In this document: in pieces, positions 22,079 to 35,983 of the stretch
Layout of the letters: each line of letters opens with the position of its first letter
Position numbering within the stretch: position 1 is the first letter of the stretch
Origin: a virus
Lineage: Duplodnaviria > Heunggongvirae > Uroviricota > Caudoviricetes
Direction: 5' to 3' (one strand)
Length of the DNA: 64,000 nt
Virus record (IMG/VR): IMGVR_UViG_2778261161_000002
Translations under genes and position numbers: made by a program
The notes under the pieces: generated by a model
What the model saw: only the letters and a program-made list of their open reading frames with translations
What the model was told of the DNA's origin: nothing
Database searches by the model: none

Positions 22079-22250
22079 TGTGTTAGAAATCTAAAATCAC
22101 AATTCGAATGTATTGATTGTGAAGATAACTTAACATAGAATTTTCCTTGCTGGTGGGCGGTACCCACGTTTCGCTTGCTGGGCTTGATAGTCACTTATTG
22201 GTTATTGTTCTCCCACCAGCATTTAACAAATTAAAGTGTTAGAAAAATAT
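22079..22250. promoter_or_regulatory. cluster of TGTTAGAAA-type motifs (sites E/F)
   Basis: TGTTAGAAATCTAAAATCACA at 22081 and TGTTAGAAAAA at 22238, plus TTAACATAGAA half-site. Confidence 0.35.
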
Positions 22251-23312
22251 GGTAATACAAGAGCACGCTTTGGCACCGTGCAGGCCAAAGTTCAGCAGGT
22301 TTAGTGCGGAAAGTGGTTTCAGAGAGAGCACTTTGCGGAGTAAACGACAATACATGTTGAGCCACGGAAGGTCTTTTTAAGGTGTTCATTGATGATGGTC
22401 CGGCAGAGAGTAACGGTACATGCTGTATCTAATCATCAATGCACATCTTCAACATTAAGGAGGCATAGGGATTTTTGTGGCGGTTACCTTTTGCCCTGAG
22501 TCTCCTTAATGTTGCGGTAATGCACCTATGCGGATGTGGCCTTGCATTGTGTCTTGAAAGAATGGGGTAAGGCCGGGGATATCCCCAGGGGGAGGCACCC
22601 CCGCTGCAACGAACAGCCACAGACGGCAGTCGAGTGATGGAAACGTGTAAAGACTTTAAACCTCGTTACGGCTGGCGTGGCAAACGCGACAACCGAGACA
22701 GAGCGGTGACGGGCGGAGAGAGTGCCGCATCAAGAAAGAAGCCGACTTGTGATCCCTTTCTGCGGGCATTTGAAAGTGAATCCAGCTCAGGCAGTCGGCT
22801 TCTTTCTTGTGTGAGATGTAGCGTATTTGCCCATCTTCGGGTGGGCTTTTTTAGGGTTTTCGTCATGGTTAGCGACTTTGCGGCGGTTTAGAAACCGACC
22901 ATTAAAGTAAATGCAAACGATGATCTGATGATGGTAGCGGCCTAAGAAGCCTGACGCCACGGGGTATGAGTCGTCCCCCGTCAAAAAATCGACCGCAGAG
23001 TGTCCCCGTCTGTGTATTAGGGAACGGGGAGGCATAACAGGCAAGGGCGCTGGTGTGATTAACCAGATGAATGAGAAGGGTCAGGTCTTTCTGGTCAGCG
23101 CCCTTACCTGTTACGTCCCTCCAGCGTAACAGCCATTGCTTGATGGCACCCTGGGAGAATTTCTTGTAACGGGTAAATCCCGTCATGCTGAAGGCGCTAA
23201 TCACGCTGGAAGCCAGGGTTATGCATCCCCTGTTACCGAATTGCAGCCAGGGCGCGATGCGCCGAAAAGCATACGGAGGTGGAAGCCCTCGCCGGAGACG
23301 TACCCGGCAAGT

Positions 23313-23921: not shown

Positions 23922-24008
23922 GGAGAGTAGGGGGCATGGTGCTCAAGCGGTCTTGAAAACCGTCCCATTGCGCAAGCGATGATGGTTCGATTCCATTACT
24001 CTCCGCCA
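23922..24008 (+). tRNA. tRNA-Ser (anticodon UGA), type II with long variable arm
   Basis: acceptor GGAGAGT/ACTCTCC, anticodon arm GGTCTTGAAAACC as in E. coli serT, T-loop TTCGATT, CCA encoded; D-arm atypical. Confidence 0.55.
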
Positions 24009-24168
24009 TCGCAACGTTAAGAGTATTTGGCTAATTAAGCGAATGCCGGAAGCAGAACCGGATCATCAAATGCGTACAGGCGTCATCGCCGCCCAGCCAG
24101 CCAAGTGCTCTTACCATTGCGGTGAATGCGGCTAAGCGCACGCGGAACAGTTAAAACAATCCTCCTTA

Positions 24169-24492
24169 GTGGTTAAGTCAAACATCCCGGCGTTAATTGT
24201 TAACTGGTTAACGTCACCTGGAGGCACCAGGCACCGCAATCTAATAAAGTTTCAAGCAATGGGGTTTTTGTTGTCAGACTTCAGATATAGATGGTTGTGG
24301 AAGGAGAGCCTGTACATAGTGCAGTTATTTCTTCCGCTATTTGTCTGCTTTGTCATGCTTCCTGAGCTGAAATACGCAATTTCAGACACTTTAAGCACTA
24401 TCGTTACTTTTGTGTTTTATCTTTACTTTGATTACTTATTGAGCACTAAAATCAATGAATTATCCGAGGAAATGCAAGGTGGCTGTAAGTGA
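24169..24492 (+). CDS. small hydrophobic protein in tRNA island (start uncertain, possibly 24259)
   Basis: AT-rich ORF with two hydrophobic helices. Confidence 0.3.
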   Translation: MVKSNIPALIVNWLTSPGGTRHRNLIKFQAMGFLLSDFRYRWLWKESLYIVQLFLPLFVCFVMLPELKYAISDTLSTIVTFVFYLYFDYLLSTKINELSEEMQGGCK

Positions 24493-24629: not shown

Positions 24630-24705
24630 GGCCCTTTAGCTCAGTGGTTAGAGCAGGCGACTCATAATCGCACGGTCACCGGTTCAAATCCGGTAGGGGC
24701 CACCA
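24630..24705 (+). tRNA. tRNA-Ile2 (anticodon CAU, ileX-like)
   Basis: near-identical to E. coli ileX over the D and anticodon arms; encoded CCA. Confidence 0.8.
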
Positions 24706-24759
24706 TATTTGGTTGTAACACGGCGTATGGCACATGCGTCGTTAGCGGTCTGGTGTAGC

Positions 24760-24779
24760 TGTTAGGTACCTTACTAACA
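24760..24779. promoter_or_regulatory. TGTTAGG...CTAACA palindromic motif (operator-like site G)
   Basis: TGTTAGGTACCTTACTAACA upstream of 25160 gene. Confidence 0.35.
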
Positions 24780-25159
24780 CTGCATGGGCACATCAGGTAG
24801 CCGGAATGTGCAAGTCACCGCTGGAGGGATAGCGGACTCAGGGACTCACCATCCTGGCGATTCGGTGTGACAGCCGGAATAGCACGGCGCACAACAGGAA
24901 AAGGCGTTTAATTAACGCGAGCGCCGTTTCCGTTGTGGTAATTGCGGCTATGCGCTCGTGACGAAGCCATTTTCATTCACTACGTTCTGATAAGTGACGT
25001 CGCCGGGAGTGGCTAACCTGGCAGGTGGAGGCACCACCGCCACAACTCCTCTCAATTCATCATATAGCCGCTCAGGCTGTACCTCTTAATTAATACGAAG
25101 TTACGACATCACTACCGGTACTTCCGGGGGATAGTCGCGCGTGTAAAAAAGGAGACGTT

Positions 25160-25735
25160 ATGTTAATGGCGAACGATAACGCATATGCAGAAGAAGATCT
25201 CATTTTGAGTGACTTCATAGGGAAGCGGGAACGCTGGACCCAAAAGCGAGAGGAACTTTACGCCTCATTAGTTCGCAAAGGCGTCAATATCGAAACCGCA
25301 CAGAGCGGCGATATGACAGTGGTAAGCGTTGGATTGCACGGTGTAAGCGTGTCAGCAATCAATCATGAGCCATACGTTGCGTTATCCGAGTCAATGGTAA
25401 GGTTAGTTAAGTTCCTGAAGTACACAGAAGCGAATAATGTAATCATTGGCAAAAAGAATATCCCTTTTTCCTCGGCTTTTTACTGGATGATGAAAGGGCT
25501 TGATGCCCGGCGGACATCATGGCCTAAAGGGAGCTATATATCGATGTTCCGTGGCAGCATTGGCAGCAAAGAAAAGCTCTTCGAATTCTTGCCGGAAGAG
25601 GCATTCGATATTGTGGAAGGGTGCGATGTGATGGTGATGCCTCGCCTGGTAATGATGAATGGGGATTTACAGGCGCAGACAGACTGGTTTGCAACTGGTG
25701 TGGATATTATCGCGACTGACTGGGAGGCTTTCTGA
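25160..25735 (+). CDS. protein with C-terminal DUF2829 (Tad2-like) domain
   Basis: 191 aa; C-terminus FSSAFYWMMKGLDARRTSWPKGSYISMF ... DIIATDWEAF parallels the 33382..34083 C-terminus. Confidence 0.5.
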   Translation: MLMANDNAYAEEDLILSDFIGKRERWTQKREELYASLVRKGVNIETAQSGDMTVVSVGLHGVSVSAINHEPYVALSESMVRLVKFLKYTEANNVIIGKKNIPFSSAFYWMMKGLDARRTSWPKGSYISMFRGSIGSKEKLFEFLPEEAFDIVEGCDVMVMPRLVMMNGDLQAQTDWFATGVDIIATDWEAF

Positions 25736-26127
25736 TGTACGGGACTACCAAATTAAGCACTCAACAGGCCACCAATATGGAGTGGTCTATCGCTAACTGT
25801 AAGATCGTGTCATGCAATGTCACGCGTACTGATGTGGGCCATAAAAGCACTATAACAGGCTATCTAGTAATGACCACCAGGGGGATGAGGGTTAGATTTC
25901 GCTGGAAAGCAGAGCAAGTAACGCCATTCAGAGAGCCATCAATGCCGCTGCAGGTTGAGCAGGATTATCTATGTTTACCAGAAATAGATGGAGGAATGCT
26001 GGTGGAGTCTGATGGTAGTAAGGCTGATTTTGAAGCCAATTTGAAGCTGGCACAGGCCGTAATCAATAGTTATCGCGGAAAGTGGATCGCAAAAGTGAAA
26101 CATGTTGTTCGTTTGTCTCGCTGGTAG
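25735..26127 (+). CDS. hypothetical protein
   Basis: 130 aa, ATGA overlap with upstream gene. Confidence 0.45.
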   Translation: MYGTTKLSTQQATNMEWSIANCKIVSCNVTRTDVGHKSTITGYLVMTTRGMRVRFRWKAEQVTPFREPSMPLQVEQDYLCLPEIDGGMLVESDGSKADFEANLKLAQAVINSYRGKWIAKVKHVVRLSRW

Positions 26128-26128
26128 C

Positions 26129-26162
26129 GTTAGATATTTAATATTAATTTTCTAATATAATC
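26129..26162. promoter_or_regulatory. GTTAGATA ... TTTTCTAATATAAT motif (operator-like site H)
   Basis: motif family member about 75 nt upstream of the lpa-like gene. Confidence 0.4.
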
Positions 26163-26235: not shown

Positions 26236-26628
26236 ATGGAACAAATCAGCAGCGCAGAAATTGCGGATATCATGATCAGGGCTGACTGCTATCTGACAGT
26301 CACTGAAATTACCACTCTCGCCAAAGAAAAATACCCTCATCTCCATGTTTCACGAGTAAGTGTAACTAACATCATTCGTCATTTTGTTCGTTCAAGCAGG
26401 GCAATCTGTGAGCTGGATGATCGTGTGTATCCACGAAAATACTGGCTACATGGTCTGAACGGATATCAGTTCAAGGTGCGCGGGCGCACGCCTGAATACG
26501 GTAGCTTACTGGTTAAAAACTGTAGCAGGAAATCAGTCGAACAGGCGCGAAAAGAGCAACGAGAGCTGGTGGACATGGCGAATAAGCTGTGGAATGCCGC
26601 CGTTAAAAAGCGTGGTGTTGCTTTATGA
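26236..26628 (+). CDS. lpa: Lpa-like late promoter activator (positional)
   Basis: 130 aa basic protein overlapping the start of pacA, as gene 10/lpa does in P1. Confidence 0.45.
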   Translation: MEQISSAEIADIMIRADCYLTVTEITTLAKEKYPHLHVSRVSVTNIIRHFVRSSRAICELDDRVYPRKYWLHGLNGYQFKVRGRTPEYGSLLVKNCSRKSVEQARKEQRELVDMANKLWNAAVKKRGVAL

Positions 26629-27989
26629 GTCTGGTTAATTGGGAGGAGCACCGCGCCCGCTTTATAGCGTTGCGTGAAGAAAAAGGGATCACTGTAAAGG
26701 AATACTGTGAGGAGCATGGCCTTAGCTTCAATACAGCCAGAAAGCATCTCAATATGAAAAAAAATGAGGTGCGGTCGCAGGTAAAGACAACAAAAAAAAG
26801 CACCAAATCACCTGAAAAAAAACGGGCGGGAAGAGCAACAAAAAAGCTGGAAGAGGGCGCAGAAAAAACAAAATTTACAGAAATTGACAATTCGCAGGGT
26901 GCAGGTTCTTTCCGAAGTATGCCAAGAAAGAAAACTCCGGATCATGAAAGTAATACCAATAATAACAATGAGATAAAAGAATCTGTCAGGAGATCATTGC
27001 GCGAAAAAATGGCGAAAATGATCCCCGAAGAAGATAAAAGCGCCCCAAAAATTGAGGGATCTTCAGCAATGATCCCTGGCGGTGCTGTGCAACGTGCCAC
27101 ATTGCCCACTACGAATGTGGCTCGCGACATGATGAAGAACGGCGCAGAAGAACACCTGCGGTTAGCAATTCAAATGGCGCAAGAGCGCGCACTTCAGTAT
27201 CAAAGCATTGTTGATCAGGAGGCCGAACGTCTACAGGCGGAAATAGACGCCTTGGGCGATAAAGAGCCAGAAGGAATGCACCCTGGGCAGCGCCTTCTCG
27301 GTCTAATCAGTGACGCGGCCTACTACATGAATGATTTTATCAGTAGGTTGGCAGCTATATATCAGTCCGAACAAAAGCTGCGACAGGGGGATGAAAAGCT
27401 TCGTCAGAGCGCTCGCCAGCAAGCATTCAAAGAGGCTGAGGCCAGAGAAAAACTCGAATTAGCACGCCTACAGGCCGAACAGCGTGGCAAAGAGATTGAA
27501 TATCGCATTGGCGCTGACGCACGCGCAGCCAGAGTTATCGCCGCCGCTATACGTATGCGTGAGCGCGAGGAACTGGATGATATCGGTGTTGCTGAATACA
27601 TCGAGCGCCAGGGGGTCAGCGTCCCGGCTATCCTCGCGGCGCGCGCGGCGAAAGCTATCACTCTTCTCGAACCACCTGTTTCTGACGTCAATGATGTTGA
27701 TGATGAACAGCTGGACAAAGAGGCAAGGGAGTTTGCGACGCTTCAGGCTAACCATCCGCAATGGCTGGCAGAGCGCCGGGCGGATGTGGCAACCATTGTT
27801 GAAGAATTGGGGTGCGGAGATTACGACCGCAATGGCGAGCGTAAAGCTGGAGAATTCGAGGCCAACGACGAAGAGCTGGATATTGACCCTTCGGCAACGG
27901 CTGAAATTTACGGTGATTATGATGCATCTGATGCAGGGTATGACGCCGGAGATGATGATATCGCGATAGAACCGCCGGAGGATGATTAA
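26625..27989 (+). CDS. pacA: terminase small subunit-like (PacA-like)
   Basis: 454 aa, N-terminal HTH-like region, charged centre, acidic tail; immediately precedes the large terminase. Confidence 0.55.
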   Translation: MSLVNWEEHRARFIALREEKGITVKEYCEEHGLSFNTARKHLNMKKNEVRSQVKTTKKSTKSPEKKRAGRATKKLEEGAEKTKFTEIDNSQGAGSFRSMPRKKTPDHESNTNNNNEIKESVRRSLREKMAKMIPEEDKSAPKIEGSSAMIPGGAVQRATLPTTNVARDMMKNGAEEHLRLAIQMAQERALQYQSIVDQEAERLQAEIDALGDKEPEGMHPGQRLLGLISDAAYYMNDFISRLAAIYQSEQKLRQGDEKLRQSARQQAFKEAEAREKLELARLQAEQRGKEIEYRIGADARAARVIAAAIRMREREELDDIGVAEYIERQGVSVPAILAARAAKAITLLEPPVSDVNDVDDEQLDKEAREFATLQANHPQWLAERRADVATIVEELGCGDYDRNGERKAGEFEANDEELDIDPSATAEIYGDYDASDAGYDAGDDDIAIEPPEDD

Positions 27990-29497
27990 TGGCTGGAGGG
28001 CGCAAGATTAAATGCGTCACCAGCGATCCACGCTGGCGCGATATGGTAATCAAATACCGCTACAACTTTACCCAGGCTGTTGTCGATATTTTTGGGATGT
28101 TCCCCTCCCACCAGCAGCAGCAGATCATTCAGTCCGTGCAGGAAACGGGGAGTAGGACGACCGTCACGTCCGGACACGGAACGGGGAAGTCGTCCCTTAC
28201 CGCGATGTTGCTGTTGATTTTCATGATCCTGTTCCCCGATGCCCGTGTCATCATTGTTGCTAACAAGATAGGCCAGGTAAAAACAGGCGTATTCAAATAC
28301 GTTAAACAGTATTGGGCGAATGCAGTTAAGCGTCATGGGTGGTTGCAGACCTATTTTGTCCTCTCTGACACCATGTTTTATGAGCGCTCCCGTAAGGGGA
28401 TTTGGGAAGTTCTCTGCAAAGGTTATCGACTCGGCAACGAAGAAGCGCTGGCGGGGGAACACGCGGCACATTTGCTTCTAATTCTGGATGAAGCATCTGG
28501 TATATCTGATAAGGCGATCGGCGTAATGACCGGTGCTCTTACTGAAGAAGATAACCGGATGTTGATGCTATCCCAGCCAACAAGGCCAAGTGGTTATTTT
28601 TACGATTCGCACCATTCTCAAGCAAAAACCCCAGACAACCCGAAAGGGATCTGGACAGCAATTGTTCTTAACTCGGAAGAATCACCGTTCGTCACACCAC
28701 AATTCATCAAGCAGAAGCTTCTGGAATATGGGGGGCGCGATTCTATTGAGTACATGGTCAAGGTGCTTGGTCAGTTCCCACGAGAAATTAACGGCTATTT
28801 GCTTGGTCGTGATGAATGCGATCGCGCTGCTCGCCGCAAGGTGCTGTTGGAGAAAAACTGGGGATGGGTGGCAACGGCTGACGTTGGTAATGGGCGAGAT
28901 AAGTCGGTCCTCAACATCTGCAAGGTATCTGGTCACAGGGATAAGCGGCGCGTTGTTAACTTTAAGGTAATGGAGATGCCTGGCACTATGGACCCATTGG
29001 CCTTTGCTGACTTCATATATAACGAATGTACGCCGGAAAAATACCCGAATATAACAATCGCGGTTGATGCTGATGGTTTTGGTTCTGATACGTGTGCGCA
29101 GTTGGTGCGTCGTGGTGCGAACCCGGTACGTATTCGGTGGGGAAAACCCATGTTTGCGAACAAAGACAGGGAGCGATTTGTTAATCAGCGTGCCTACGCA
29201 AATATTATGGCGCGAGATGCCATAAAGTCAGGGCGTATGCGGATAGACAGTGACCCTAAAACGGCAGAGCAAGCGTCAAAAATCCCCTTTTTACTGAATG
29301 AAGAAGGGAAAATGGCGATGATGCGCAAAGAGCACATGCGGCAAAAGCTAAACATCAAATCGCCTGACCGATGGGATACCTACTGCTTCACTATGCTGGT
29401 GGACTATGTGCCTGCTAATGAAGATATTGGTGCCGAAATGGCAACTTTCCGAGATCAGGTTCTGGCGGATATCGAAATGCCGGATCTGGATATATAA
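27989..29497 (+). CDS. pacB: terminase large subunit (PacB-like)
   Basis: 502 aa; Walker A SGHGTGKS, Walker B LLLILDEASG, C-terminal nuclease-like region with VDADGFG. Confidence 0.8.
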   Translation: MAGGRKIKCVTSDPRWRDMVIKYRYNFTQAVVDIFGMFPSHQQQQIIQSVQETGSRTTVTSGHGTGKSSLTAMLLLIFMILFPDARVIIVANKIGQVKTGVFKYVKQYWANAVKRHGWLQTYFVLSDTMFYERSRKGIWEVLCKGYRLGNEEALAGEHAAHLLLILDEASGISDKAIGVMTGALTEEDNRMLMLSQPTRPSGYFYDSHHSQAKTPDNPKGIWTAIVLNSEESPFVTPQFIKQKLLEYGGRDSIEYMVKVLGQFPREINGYLLGRDECDRAARRKVLLEKNWGWVATADVGNGRDKSVLNICKVSGHRDKRRVVNFKVMEMPGTMDPLAFADFIYNECTPEKYPNITIAVDADGFGSDTCAQLVRRGANPVRIRWGKPMFANKDRERFVNQRAYANIMARDAIKSGRMRIDSDPKTAEQASKIPFLLNEEGKMAMMRKEHMRQKLNIKSPDRWDTYCFTMLVDYVPANEDIGAEMATFRDQVLADIEMPDLDI

Positions 29498-33381: not shown

Positions 33382-34083
33382 ATGAATTACATGACAACGA
33401 AAGAGCTTTTTAAGTTCCTTCCCAAATACAAAGCTCACAAAAACGTTAGTGCATCGAAAATCAAAAATGTTGTTATTTTCGGAGTAACTGCTTCCCCACT
33501 TTGGGGCTGCATCGAACTCGTTGAACCAAAAGGGGCAACAGTTTGTGTTGACGCAATTTTTTTACAAAAACACCGACCAAAAACTGGCGGGTATCTGATC
33601 GTTTATGAAAACGGTTATCTGTTCTATGCCCCGGAGAAACCATTTGAGCAATGCTATGGCCTGGTTAACGACGCCTCCGAAAATGGGGTATCGCTCAGCA
33701 TTGAAGGTCACAATGGGGTGACATTCATTACAGCCAGGGACGTAACTATTTCTGCTGGCGGTATCGCTACTCTACAAGAAGAAATCGACCTTGAAGCAGC
33801 CGACTTTTCTGACGCGCTGATGTGGCTGAAGGATGGCAAGAAAGTTGCTCGACGCGGGTGGAACGGCGAAAACCAATTCTGCTGGCTGGTTCCTGACAAA
33901 CAGGGTGCTTCAAGACTAACCCCTATAAAACATGCCGCAAACGGAGAGCTTGAAATCAATTTCGACTCTCCTCTTGCTCCTTATGGTGCGCATTTCGTTT
34001 TGAAAAATGCACAAGGTGTAGTTGTTCCATGGATGCCTTCTGTAGGTGACCTGCTGGCATGTGACTGGTTTGTAGTGGAGTGA
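33382..34083 (+). CDS. protein with C-terminal DUF2829 (Tad2-like) domain
   Basis: 233 aa; FSDALMWLKDGKKVARRGWNG ... VVPWMPSVGDLLACDWFVVE fits DUF2829 as recalled. Confidence 0.55.
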   Translation: MNYMTTKELFKFLPKYKAHKNVSASKIKNVVIFGVTASPLWGCIELVEPKGATVCVDAIFLQKHRPKTGGYLIVYENGYLFYAPEKPFEQCYGLVNDASENGVSLSIEGHNGVTFITARDVTISAGGIATLQEEIDLEAADFSDALMWLKDGKKVARRGWNGENQFCWLVPDKQGASRLTPIKHAANGELEINFDSPLAPYGAHFVLKNAQGVVVPWMPSVGDLLACDWFVVE

Positions 34084-34089
34084 TTTAAC

Positions 34090-34896
34090 GTGGAAAATAC
34101 TAAAGCAATTCAATACCGCTTGCGTAATGGCCTGCTGGTGGCTGTTAACGCCGACATGTCACTGCCGTTTGACACGATTGAACGCACCATAATGACGTAT
34201 CTCGGCTTTAATGAAGAACTGAATGAAGAGCATGGCGTAGCTATATGGAGTGATGCAGACAGCGGCGTTCGTCGTTACATCACCGCCAGGGGCAAAGACT
34301 ACTCTCTGGAAGAACTGTTTGCCCTTGCGCAGTCTTTCGAATGTGTAGCATTAGACCTGTTTAATGATCCTGCTATAGCGCAACGACTTATACGCGAGCT
34401 TGGGCTATCCGTTACACCAATTATCTTTAAAAATGGCAGCCTGACTGGCACATGGCGCGTAGAACGCATATCAAACTACCTTCCATATAACCGACAGTTA
34501 AATGGAGTAATCTCCGGCGTTAATCAGCCCGTAGCATGTGAAAATGTAAACCTGGTTGTCGCTGTTTTGGCAACCGCATGTCGTGTTATCGGTTTGGCTA
34601 AACAGGCATTTATTCATTTCCCAAATGGTGCAGAAGGTAGCGCAGAGATTATCGCGTGTGATTTCGAATTTACCTGGATGCTACGCGAATATCTGGACCA
34701 AACAGTATTCCGTGCCGAAGAACTGGATATGTATATCACGTCAACGATTCCAGACGATGTGCGAGCTGAAGCAATCGCTACAGCCAGGGCGAAATGCCGT
34801 GCGGCGATTGCAGAACAGGCCAAAGAAGAACAGTCCGATGAAGTCGCGGCAGATGTGGAGGCAGAGGTAGCGGAGGATGCTGATGCTGACGCCTAA
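34090..34896 (+). CDS. hypothetical protein with acidic C-terminal tail
   Basis: 268 aa; C-terminus EEQSDEVAADVEAEVAEDADADA; overlaps downstream terminase-like gene. Confidence 0.45.
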   Translation: MENTKAIQYRLRNGLLVAVNADMSLPFDTIERTIMTYLGFNEELNEEHGVAIWSDADSGVRRYITARGKDYSLEELFALAQSFECVALDLFNDPAIAQRLIRELGLSVTPIIFKNGSLTGTWRVERISNYLPYNRQLNGVISGVNQPVACENVNLVVAVLATACRVIGLAKQAFIHFPNGAEGSAEIIACDFEFTWMLREYLDQTVFRAEELDMYITSTIPDDVRAEAIATARAKCRAAIAEQAKEEQSDEVAADVEAEVAEDADADA

Positions 34897-35983
34897 AAAC
34901 ATCACCGAATTACCAGAGTGGAGAGAGCTGGTAAGCAAATATAGCCATGACTGGGCATTAGCAGCAGAAGAGTTGATGGGTGTTAAGTTAACCCACCAGC
35001 AAAAGCTAATTGTTGAGGCGATTCAACAAAAAGGTTCAGCAGTCAGCGTCACCACTCCTGAAGGGATAGGCCAAAAGACGGTTATCGCTATAATTAGTAT
35101 TCTTTATACAATCCTGATGCCTGAGTCTAAAACGGTTATTGTTTCCCCAAAGTTCTATAATTGTCGCAGGCAAGTTATCCAATACATAAGTACGTATTGG
35201 GATAGAGTCAGTAACAGAATCCCATTGCTGGGAGAATATTTTAAAGTCGATGGAAACGGCATCAATCATCGTTACCGGGAATATTGGGGCTGCGAAATTA
35301 AGCCATATCACCGAAATTATGAGGAAGGTTTCGGTGGATATTATGCTGAACATCTTTTAATCATTGTTACGGAGGCGGCTCTTGCTGGCGATCGGCTATT
35401 CAGCATGTTAAGAGCATCGTTAGTAAGTGACGATTCACGTATACTTTTAATGTCCGCTCCTTCAGAGGAGGAGCATGGACACTTTTACGATTCCCATCAT
35501 GGTCGTGCTAAATCAGAAGAAAATCCATGTGGTATTTATACAGCCATCAAGCTGAACGCAGAAGATACCCCCATTATTTCTCAAGGTTATCTTGATAACA
35601 TTGCAGAAATATATGGTGGTAAAAACAGCGATTACTACCGTCGTATGATTCTTGGTGAGTTTCCTGGTATTAGGGAGGCTGTTCTTGAATCAGATATGCC
35701 GAAGACAATGCGCTTTTCGATGCCTGATGGTAGTGAATGGATAATGCCATTACGAGTGATAGCCCGGCATCATGCACAGCACCACGCCAAAAAACATGGC
35801 GTTACAACATTGGAGTGGTTGAAATCGCACACCATTCCACTCTTCACTGCAGATCACAATGCTATCGTTGAGTGGGCAAAAACAATTCCGTGGGAGAATG
35901 TTGCTGAATACGCCCACATGCTAAAACCGCCGAAAGACAGGCAAGAAATTAGCTGGCTGACAGCAGAAAAAATCATTGAGTGA
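34877..35983 (+). CDS. terminase large-subunit ATPase-domain paralogue lacking the nuclease domain
   Basis: 368 aa; aligns with PacB ATPase region (GIGQKT vs GTGKSS; shared FYDSHH); Walker B reads LLIIVTEA (D to T); C-terminal 100 aa unrelated to PacB nuclease. Confidence 0.6.
   Translation: MLMLTPKNITELPEWRELVSKYSHDWALAAEELMGVKLTHQQKLIVEAIQQKGSAVSVTTPEGIGQKTVIAIISILYTILMPESKTVIVSPKFYNCRRQVIQYISTYWDRVSNRIPLLGEYFKVDGNGINHRYREYWGCEIKPYHRNYEEGFGGYYAEHLLIIVTEAALAGDRLFSMLRASLVSDDSRILLMSAPSEEEHGHFYDSHHGRAKSEENPCGIYTAIKLNAEDTPIISQGYLDNIAEIYGGKNSDYYRRMILGEFPGIREAVLESDMPKTMRFSMPDGSEWIMPLRVIARHHAQHHAKKHGVTTLEWLKSHTIPLFTADHNAIVEWAKTIPWENVAEYAHMLKPPKDRQEISWLTAEKIIE

Follow-up and report, generated by a model that had tools for sequence, protein, structure and literature searches.

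The window analysed here is a 64,000-nucleotide stretch of viral DNA (IMG/VR record IMGVR_UViG_2778261161_000002) which, judged by its sequence, is a D6-like phage-plasmid of the P1 family. Our subject is a pair of overlapping genes at positions 25,160 to 26,127, ORF191 and ORF130, together with the leader that precedes them. A first-pass annotation generated by a model had described both reading frames and their overlap, and the list of open reading frames (ORFs) and the TGATG junction bear this description out. The two genes, and the domains of the first product, are as follows (aa, amino acids; dsRBD, double-stranded RNA-binding domain).

25160-25735, + strand: ORF191 (D6 orf6/gp006; phrog_7362), 191 aa, ATG start, two domains
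25160-25459, + strand: N-terminal domain of ORF191, residues ~1-100, predicted helix-helix-strand-strand-strand-helix, dsRBD-like
25466-25732, + strand: C-terminal Tad2-like domain of ORF191 (PF11195/DUF2829), residues 103-191
25735-26127, + strand: ORF130 (D6 orf5/gp005; phrog_7004), 130 aa, basic

An overlapping gene pair of D6-like elements

Each gene has its own ribosome-binding site (AAGGAG at 25149-25154 for ORF191, GGAGG at 25723-25727 for ORF130), and the stop codon of the first shares one base with the start codon of the second (TGATG), indicating translational coupling. The products are opposite in charge, ORF191 being acidic (isoelectric point (pI) 5.0, 21.6 kDa, grand average of hydropathy -0.07) and ORF130 basic (pI 9.4). 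The ORF191 product is 100% identical to D6 gp006, and the ~3-kb stretch around the pair shares 97.7% identity with Escherichia phage D6 and 99.9% with non-mobilizable E. coli plasmids of ~92 kb. The D6 record labels both genes (orf6 and orf5) 'hypothetical protein' and places them directly before lpa, pacA, pacB and c1, an order identical to that of the window. The location is fixed, directly before lpa-pacA-pacB-c1 in every relative. We found the pair in 119 plasmid records, all of them ~90-kb D6-like elements from Escherichia, Salmonella and Shigella, and, among 50,697 phage records, in D6 alone. Ratios of nonsynonymous to synonymous substitution (dN/dS) against relative L006 were 0.09 for ORF191 (92% identical) and 0.13 for ORF130 (69% identical), showing purifying selection on both genes.

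The C-terminal domain of ORF191 is Tad2-like

The end of ORF191 (ARRTSW...DIIATDWEAF) had been read as DUF2829-like in the first-pass annotation, which named a domain search beforehand as the possible refutation; that search instead backs the relationship. PF11195, now called 'Thoeris anti-defense 2-like', matched residues 103-190 with E=1.1e-9 and 39.1 bits, above the cut-off of 25. A profile of the 12-member ORF191 family matched SptTad2, HgmTad2/AcrIIA7, ModTad2 and SPO1 Tad2 (E 6e-7 to 5e-6), and Foldseek recovered SPO1 Tad2 at E=6e-5 from an AlphaFold2 model built on the family alignment (predicted local distance difference test (pLDDT) 88.3). The C-domain of this model has the Tad2 fold, in which an N-terminal helix packs on an antiparallel sheet. 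Identity to the solved Tad2 proteins is 13-24%, and phmmer with ORF191 against PDB sequences returned no match to them. The family itself is small: an exhaustive hidden Markov model (HMM) search of 1.84 billion representative proteins gave only 29 matches, about 10 of which were full-length two-domain relatives at 20-42% identity.

Pocket residues were mapped through the HMM alignment to 8wje/8sme, with the ligand residues taken from published structures (10.1101/2023.05.01.538930, 10.1101/2023.11.15.567273). SPO1 Tad2 contacts its ligand through W25, N26, W73 and D79 (10.1101/2023.05.01.538930), and the HgmTad2 equivalents are W21/N22/G23, W87 and S90/T92/D93 (10.1101/2023.11.15.567273). W121, W176 and D182 of ORF191 align with W25, W73 and D79 of SPO1 Tad2, so the Trp pair that sandwiches the ligand and the Asp are retained. 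Both Trp residues are invariant in the 12-member family, while the D182 position holds Asp in the closer members (8/12) and Ser or Cys in the others.

The same family membership raises the question of an anti-CRISPR protein of the AcrIIA7 type, as AcrIIA7 (HgmTad2) belongs to PF11195 and ranks with the best structural matches. We regard this as extremely unlikely. To our knowledge, the Escherichia and Salmonella hosts carry type I CRISPR and not type II-A, which counts against it. The reported activity of AcrIIA7 against SpyCas9 has moreover proved irreproducible in vitro and in vivo (10.1101/2023.11.15.567273).

The N-terminal domain of ORF191

The N-terminal half had been described as different from that of the other DUF2829-like protein of the window, a 233-aa protein encoded at 33382-34083, and the two halves are indeed unrelated. 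Six representative N-domains matched no Pfam family even at E<=10. The predicted fold may resemble that of a dsRBD, a likeness at the level of the modelled fold only: by inspection of the N-domain alignment, the GPxH loop and the KKxAK motif at the start of helix 2, through which dsRBDs contact RNA, are absent, and ORF191 has NHEPYVALSES at the corresponding place. For this domain, RNA binding is no more likely a role than oligomerisation or partner binding.

ORF130 and its pairing with ORF191

The first-pass annotation had called the coupled 130-aa gene one of unknown function, and our searches agree: ORF130 matched nothing in Pfam, NCBIfam, PADLOC or the PDB sequences (phmmer), Pfam scans of its diverged homologues gave sub-threshold noise only, and a profile search found relatives in D6-like elements only. 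The AlphaFold2 model was unusable (pLDDT 48.5). On the near-identical plasmid pE2863-2 (NZ_AP018804.1; L002 3034-3276), RefSeq annotates just the 80-aa C-terminal part of the protein. This shorter form is probably a truncated annotation, since the first 50 residues of ORF130 are conserved at the protein level across homologues and D6 has the 130-aa form.

In L003, L007, L008 and L010, where ORF191 identity falls to 56%, 36%, 33% and 22%, respectively, the next gene after the ORF191 homologue is an ORF130 homologue. The one-base overlap is kept in L003, L008 and L010, with a 3-nt gap in L007, and pair and overlap are also kept where ORF191 is 92% identical. A small gene precedes, and usually overlaps, the ORF191 homologue in distant relatives (L009 73-333, L010 4696-5001, L012 3096-3371, L014 4615-4995); at least in L009, L011, L012/L013 and L014 it ends in a very basic C-terminal tail (KRKSK...RKKR-like). 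The window has no counterpart of this gene.

Two small overlapping genes with products of opposite charge recall a plasmid-addiction or toxin-antitoxin-like module, and P1 has phd-doc-pdcA-pdcB instead of the ORF191/ORF130 pair in its slot upstream of lpa, so the pair could fill the phd-doc slot. Some homologues also carry the NCBI label 'MW1434 family type I TA system toxin' (TA, toxin-antitoxin). However, that label stems from a list of Staphylococcus aureus prophage genes compiled by bioinformatics alone, without toxicity data for the gene concerned (PMC6266405). Neither protein matched a TA family in Pfam, NCBIfam or PADLOC, the only match being PF11195, whose characterised Tad2 members are non-toxic sponges, and a type I toxin would be expected to be small and hydrophobic, whereas ORF191 is a soluble protein of 21.6 kDa. 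We therefore consider such a module very unlikely.

A conserved structured RNA at the start of the leader

The pair is preceded by a 455-nt leader that begins at the end of a tRNA island. The features bounding the leader and the pair are listed below; TGTTAGAAAAWTAAT is a recurrent motif described in the next section.

24630-24705, + strand: tRNA-Met (CAT), last gene of the tRNA island and 5' boundary of the leader (ARAGORN and Rfam)
24710-24894, + strand: structured RNA-like element, ~185 nt, directly downstream of tRNA-Met, opening the ORF191 leader
24895-25159, + strand: D6-lineage-specific remainder of the leader, including a hairpin at 25111-25135 just before the ribosome-binding site
26128-26157, no strand assigned: inverted TGTTAGAAAAWTAAT pair between ORF130 and lpa, 3' boundary of the gene pair (palindrome I4)
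26236-26628: lpa (PF25716 match, E=5e-57)

The leader between tRNA-Met and ORF191 is 83% identical in the diverged lineage L003, against 59-74% for the flanking genes. Its first ~185 nt reappear at 70-83% identity in P1, P7, lambdoid phages (Stx2, cdtI and mEp460) and the epsilon15-like phages phiV10 and SPN1S, and altogether in 75 phage records and at least 120 IMG/VR contigs. From an alignment of 16 sequences we drew by hand a structure of four helices and a pseudoknot, in which 94% of cells are paired, against 28-45% with slid partners, and 11 pairs change on both sides. The covariation score was 0.308 against ~0.05 in controls, a value reached by 0/500 shuffles. The inverted repeat TGTTAG...CTAACA at 24759-24779 is a variable hairpin of this structure; D6 and P1 have a GGGG...CCCC hairpin instead. 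Rfam 15 (4227 families, both strands) gave no match to 24710-24894 at E<=10.

A covariance model of the element (R1) finds a single copy in the window, at 24710-24894 (167 bits). It also recovers phiV10 (188 bits), which lay outside the training set, as well as diverged copies from the corresponding position of distant P1/D6-like elements. In mEp460 and a Stx2a phage, a sequence that by eye resembles the PL promoter lies just beyond cI, and the element begins ~20 nt downstream of it. The genes that follow the element are unrelated between phages. Together these data suggest a general cis-acting leader or a small RNA. We also considered whether the element might be the put RNA of HK022; this identity is unsupported, as model R1 finds nothing in the HK022 immunity region. 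That it might act by put-like antitermination is speculation by analogy.

The remainder of the leader is specific to the D6 lineage. At columns 595/607 of alignment A5, the hairpin at 25111-25135 pairs as CG in seven sequences, UA in two and GU in one (RNAalifold). Two candidate sites in this part were rejected. AAGTTACGA at 25096-25104 fits the -22 box of the P1 late promoter LPhot at 7/9 positions, with no correctly spaced -10 by inspection. AATACGAAGTTAC at 25092-25104 (+ strand) resembles a loxP half site, agreeing with the arm TATACGAAGTTAT at 11/13 positions, with no second arm; about one such match would be expected by chance in the window, by our estimate. The 19-mer around AATACGAAGTTAC is conserved among D6-like leaders.

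An operator-like motif around the pair

The motif TGTTAGAAAAWTAAT occurs 20 times in the window, where ~5 occurrences would be expected, with sites that include 9887, 20832, 22081, 22237, 30576, 31986, 44200, 48772, 49424 and 61248. It often forms inverted pairs 18 nt apart, often precedes operons and is probably the C1 operator of D6-type elements. The P1 C1 operator consensus, ATTGCTCTAATAAATTT, had no match in the window at <=3 mismatches. By analogy with Olpa in P1, the inverted pair at 26128-26157 probably controls lpa, the P1 record placing Olpa/Plpa at the equivalent position. The copies nearest upstream of ORF191, at 22081 and 22237, lie ~2.9 kb away, before the tRNA island, and flank a sigma-70-like promoter at 22113-22141.

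Interpretation

We tentatively favour the reading that ORF191 is a remodelled Tad2-type sponge working with or alongside its lineage-specific partner ORF130. An anti-defence role is plausible by analogy, and reasonable because PF11195 proteins are proven sponges for the signals of Thoeris, CBASS (cyclic-oligonucleotide-based antiphage signalling system) and Pycsar (pyrimidine cyclase system for antiphage resistance) and because a bioinformatic survey reports Tad2/AcrIIA7 in 93% of D6-like phage-plasmids (10.1101/2025.09.12.675607). The pair has evolved at ~3 times the rate of lpa (dN 0.40-0.44, with 0.14 for lpa in the same comparison), as arms-race genes do, which supports an anti-defence reading. 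A second, differently tuned Tad2 copy would also be a sensible addition beside the canonical WNG-intact one:

33382-34083: canonical Tad2-like protein, 233 aa (phrog_872; PF11195 E=2.7e-21)

In the mechanism that we propose, ORF191 would be a diverged two-domain Tad2 (DUF2829) sponge specific to D6-type P1-family phage-plasmids. Its C-domain most likely still forms an inter-subunit pocket lined by two Trp and one Asp, which would sequester a small nucleotide-derived host signal; a signalling defence of the Thoeris, CBASS or Pycsar type would then not be triggered upon entry or induction of the element. The N-terminal dsRBD-like domain probably alters the oligomer or recruits a partner, for which the coupled and oppositely charged ORF130 protein is the obvious candidate. 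The ligand is probably something other than classic glycocyclic ADP-ribose (gcADPR) bound in the classic way, since Asn-Gly is lost in the whole subfamily.

Several observations weigh against this reading, and those in the pocket are the first. In HgmTad2 the diphosphate is bound by N22 and G23, and W21A/N22A abolishes binding (10.1101/2023.11.15.567273). ORF191 has W121-P122-K123 in place of W-N-G, and all 12 members of its family are without Asn-Gly, the residue after the Trp being P, R, M, N, D, G or H. The pocket differs further from that of SPO1 Tad2 at T78 (V181 in ORF191), H71 (T174) and D67 (L170), and only ~1% of Tad2 proteins are predicted to be without a functional gcADPR site (10.1101/2023.11.15.567273). 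As aligned, then, the scaffold and the aromatic walls are kept and the classic diphosphate clamp is lost, and classic gcADPR sponging by ORF191 is doubtful because the Asn-Gly that holds the diphosphate is missing. Between them, Tad2 proteins use two different pockets to bind gcADPR, His-ADPR, N7-cADPR, cyclic dinucleotides and cUMP/cCMP (10.1101/2023.11.15.567273; 10.1101/2025.08.24.671296). Such varied specificities, which have evolved partly via the second pocket, make a changed ligand credible; loss of the sponge function is equally credible.

Other points on the same side concern the partner, the 233-aa family member and the control region. In the relatives furthest removed (L009, L012 and L014) unrelated genes stand in place of ORF130, and in L006 ORF130 is 69% identical where ORF191 is 92% identical, so the two genes are not strictly co-inherited; their pairing is conserved, not obligatory. 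The first-pass annotation had called the end of ORF191 paralogous to that of the 233-aa protein. Distant membership of the same family stands (hhalign of the C-terminal domains only: 94% probability, E=1.5e-7, 21% identity), whereas BLASTP between the two proteins found no similarity and the term was overstated; they are old members of one domain family, with no recent duplication. It had also placed the pair behind an operator-like motif next to the tRNA island. A recurrent motif does stand at 22081/22237 before the island and at 26128-26157 after ORF130, whereas none lies directly upstream of ORF191: between tRNA-Met and ORF191 we found neither a copy of TGTTAGAAAAWTAAT nor a promoter-like site, and a terminator-like hairpin at 22829-22846 separates the 22081/22237 sites from the island.

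A Tad2-like domain might instead have been repurposed, with ORF191 and ORF130 forming a regulator or nucleic-acid-binding factor of the element's own life cycle, for instance an lpa/late-gene switch, in which RNA or DNA would be the target of both the dsRBD-like domain and the basic partner. The family-wide loss of the diphosphate-binding Asn-Gly, the dsRBD-like N-terminal fold, the basic ORF130 (pI 9.4) and the fixed location, upstream of lpa-pacA-pacB-c1 and downstream of a conserved structured RNA, would all fit such a factor. However, ORF191 has no sequence match to dsRBD or any other nucleic-acid-binding family, inspection shows none of the RNA-contact motifs, the widespread alpha-beta-beta-beta-alpha fold often serves protein contacts, and the conserved Trp/Trp/Asp pocket suggests that small-molecule binding is retained. 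Overall we think this alternative somewhat unlikely, while the missing Asn-Gly keeps a repurposed, non-sponge role well in play.

The sponge reading can also be pushed further. ORF191 and ORF130 might be a new two-component anti-defence device. In it, the dsRBD-like domain, the basic partner and a Tad2 pocket devoid of WNG would jointly trap something outside the reach of the known sponges, be it a signal or a macromolecule (for example an immune messenger that is RNA-linked or unconventional in some other way), and the undescribed and widespread leader RNA at 24710-24894 would govern expression in cis at the level of transcription, like put. As a whole this is distinctly unlikely.

Part of this picture is already known, namely the Tad2-like label on the ORF191 protein in precomputed Pfam annotation and the occurrence of Tad2/AcrIIA7 in D6-like elements (10.1101/2025.09.12.675607). 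Novelty is confined to the combination of two domains, the alteration of the pocket, the coupled partner and the leader RNA element. Phage-plasmids of the D6 and P1 types are frequent in pathogenic E. coli, Shigella and Salmonella, and the cells in which they have to become established carry many defence systems. A second Tad2 copy with a remodelled structure suggests that domain addition and pocket rebuilding diversify sponge scaffolds; ORF191 could lengthen the list of phage-neutralised signals or reveal a Tad2 domain recruited for another job. ORF130 represents an orphan family that offers a clear genetic handle. The leader RNA has no Rfam entry and is shared by three or more unrelated groups of temperate enterobacterial phages; it may be a cis-regulatory RNA of early phage operons that has gone unrecognised.

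Other features of the window

Downstream of the promoter at 22113-22141 (+ strand), ~700 nt without a convincing ORF end at the strong intrinsic terminator 22829-22846, making 22113-22846 a candidate repressor-controlled non-coding transcript. A weak permuted-tmRNA match (E=0.046) covers 22772-22945. The gene at 23922-24008 (+ strand) is tRNA-Ser(TGA) by ARAGORN and scores 45.2 bits with the Rfam tRNA-Sec model (gathering score 47); the D6 record states that its amino acid was not called by tRNAscan-SE. The segment 24118-24238 (+ strand) has a sub-threshold Rfam match to the small RNA STnc100 (39.4 bits against a gathering score of 47, E=3e-6), and ~24119-24252 is 82-86% identical to lambdoid (Stx, Rac-type) and other phages. 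A 368-aa ORF at 34877-35983 (+ strand), which follows the canonical Tad2-like gene, has an N-terminal part that resembles, by eye, the N-terminus of PacB (27989-29497), and it may be a second, truncated terminase-like paralogue.

Comparison with known systems

The put RNA of HK022 is the nearest point of reference for the leader, as putL occupies the place that corresponds to the RNA element in its lambdoid relatives (PMC9378689). The two differ in size and shape: put RNA has ~70 nt and two stem-loops, the leader element ~185 nt with four helices and a pseudoknot. For the N-domain of ORF191 the comparison is with the dsRBD, which its predicted fold may resemble and whose sequence family and RNA-contact motifs ORF191 does not share.

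Within the same genome, the 233-aa protein resembles ORF191 in combining a C-terminal PF11195 domain with an N-terminal extension. Unlike ORF191, it keeps GWNG and W-x-P-S-x-x-D and is matched directly to solved Tad2 chains by phmmer (E=1.6e-12), and the N-terminal regions of the two proteins are unrelated. With the characterised Tad2 proteins (SPO1 Gp34.65, ModTad2, HgmTad2/AcrIIA7 and SptTad2), ORF191 shares the domain, by HMM and predicted fold, the helix-1 motif (A..W..G...RR..W), the C-terminal W-x5-D-x4-DW motif and its encoding by a temperate phage element. Those proteins have a single domain of ~90-105 aa, whereas ORF191, at 191 aa, carries an additional N-terminal domain of ~100 aa and is translationally coupled to a lineage-specific partner gene.
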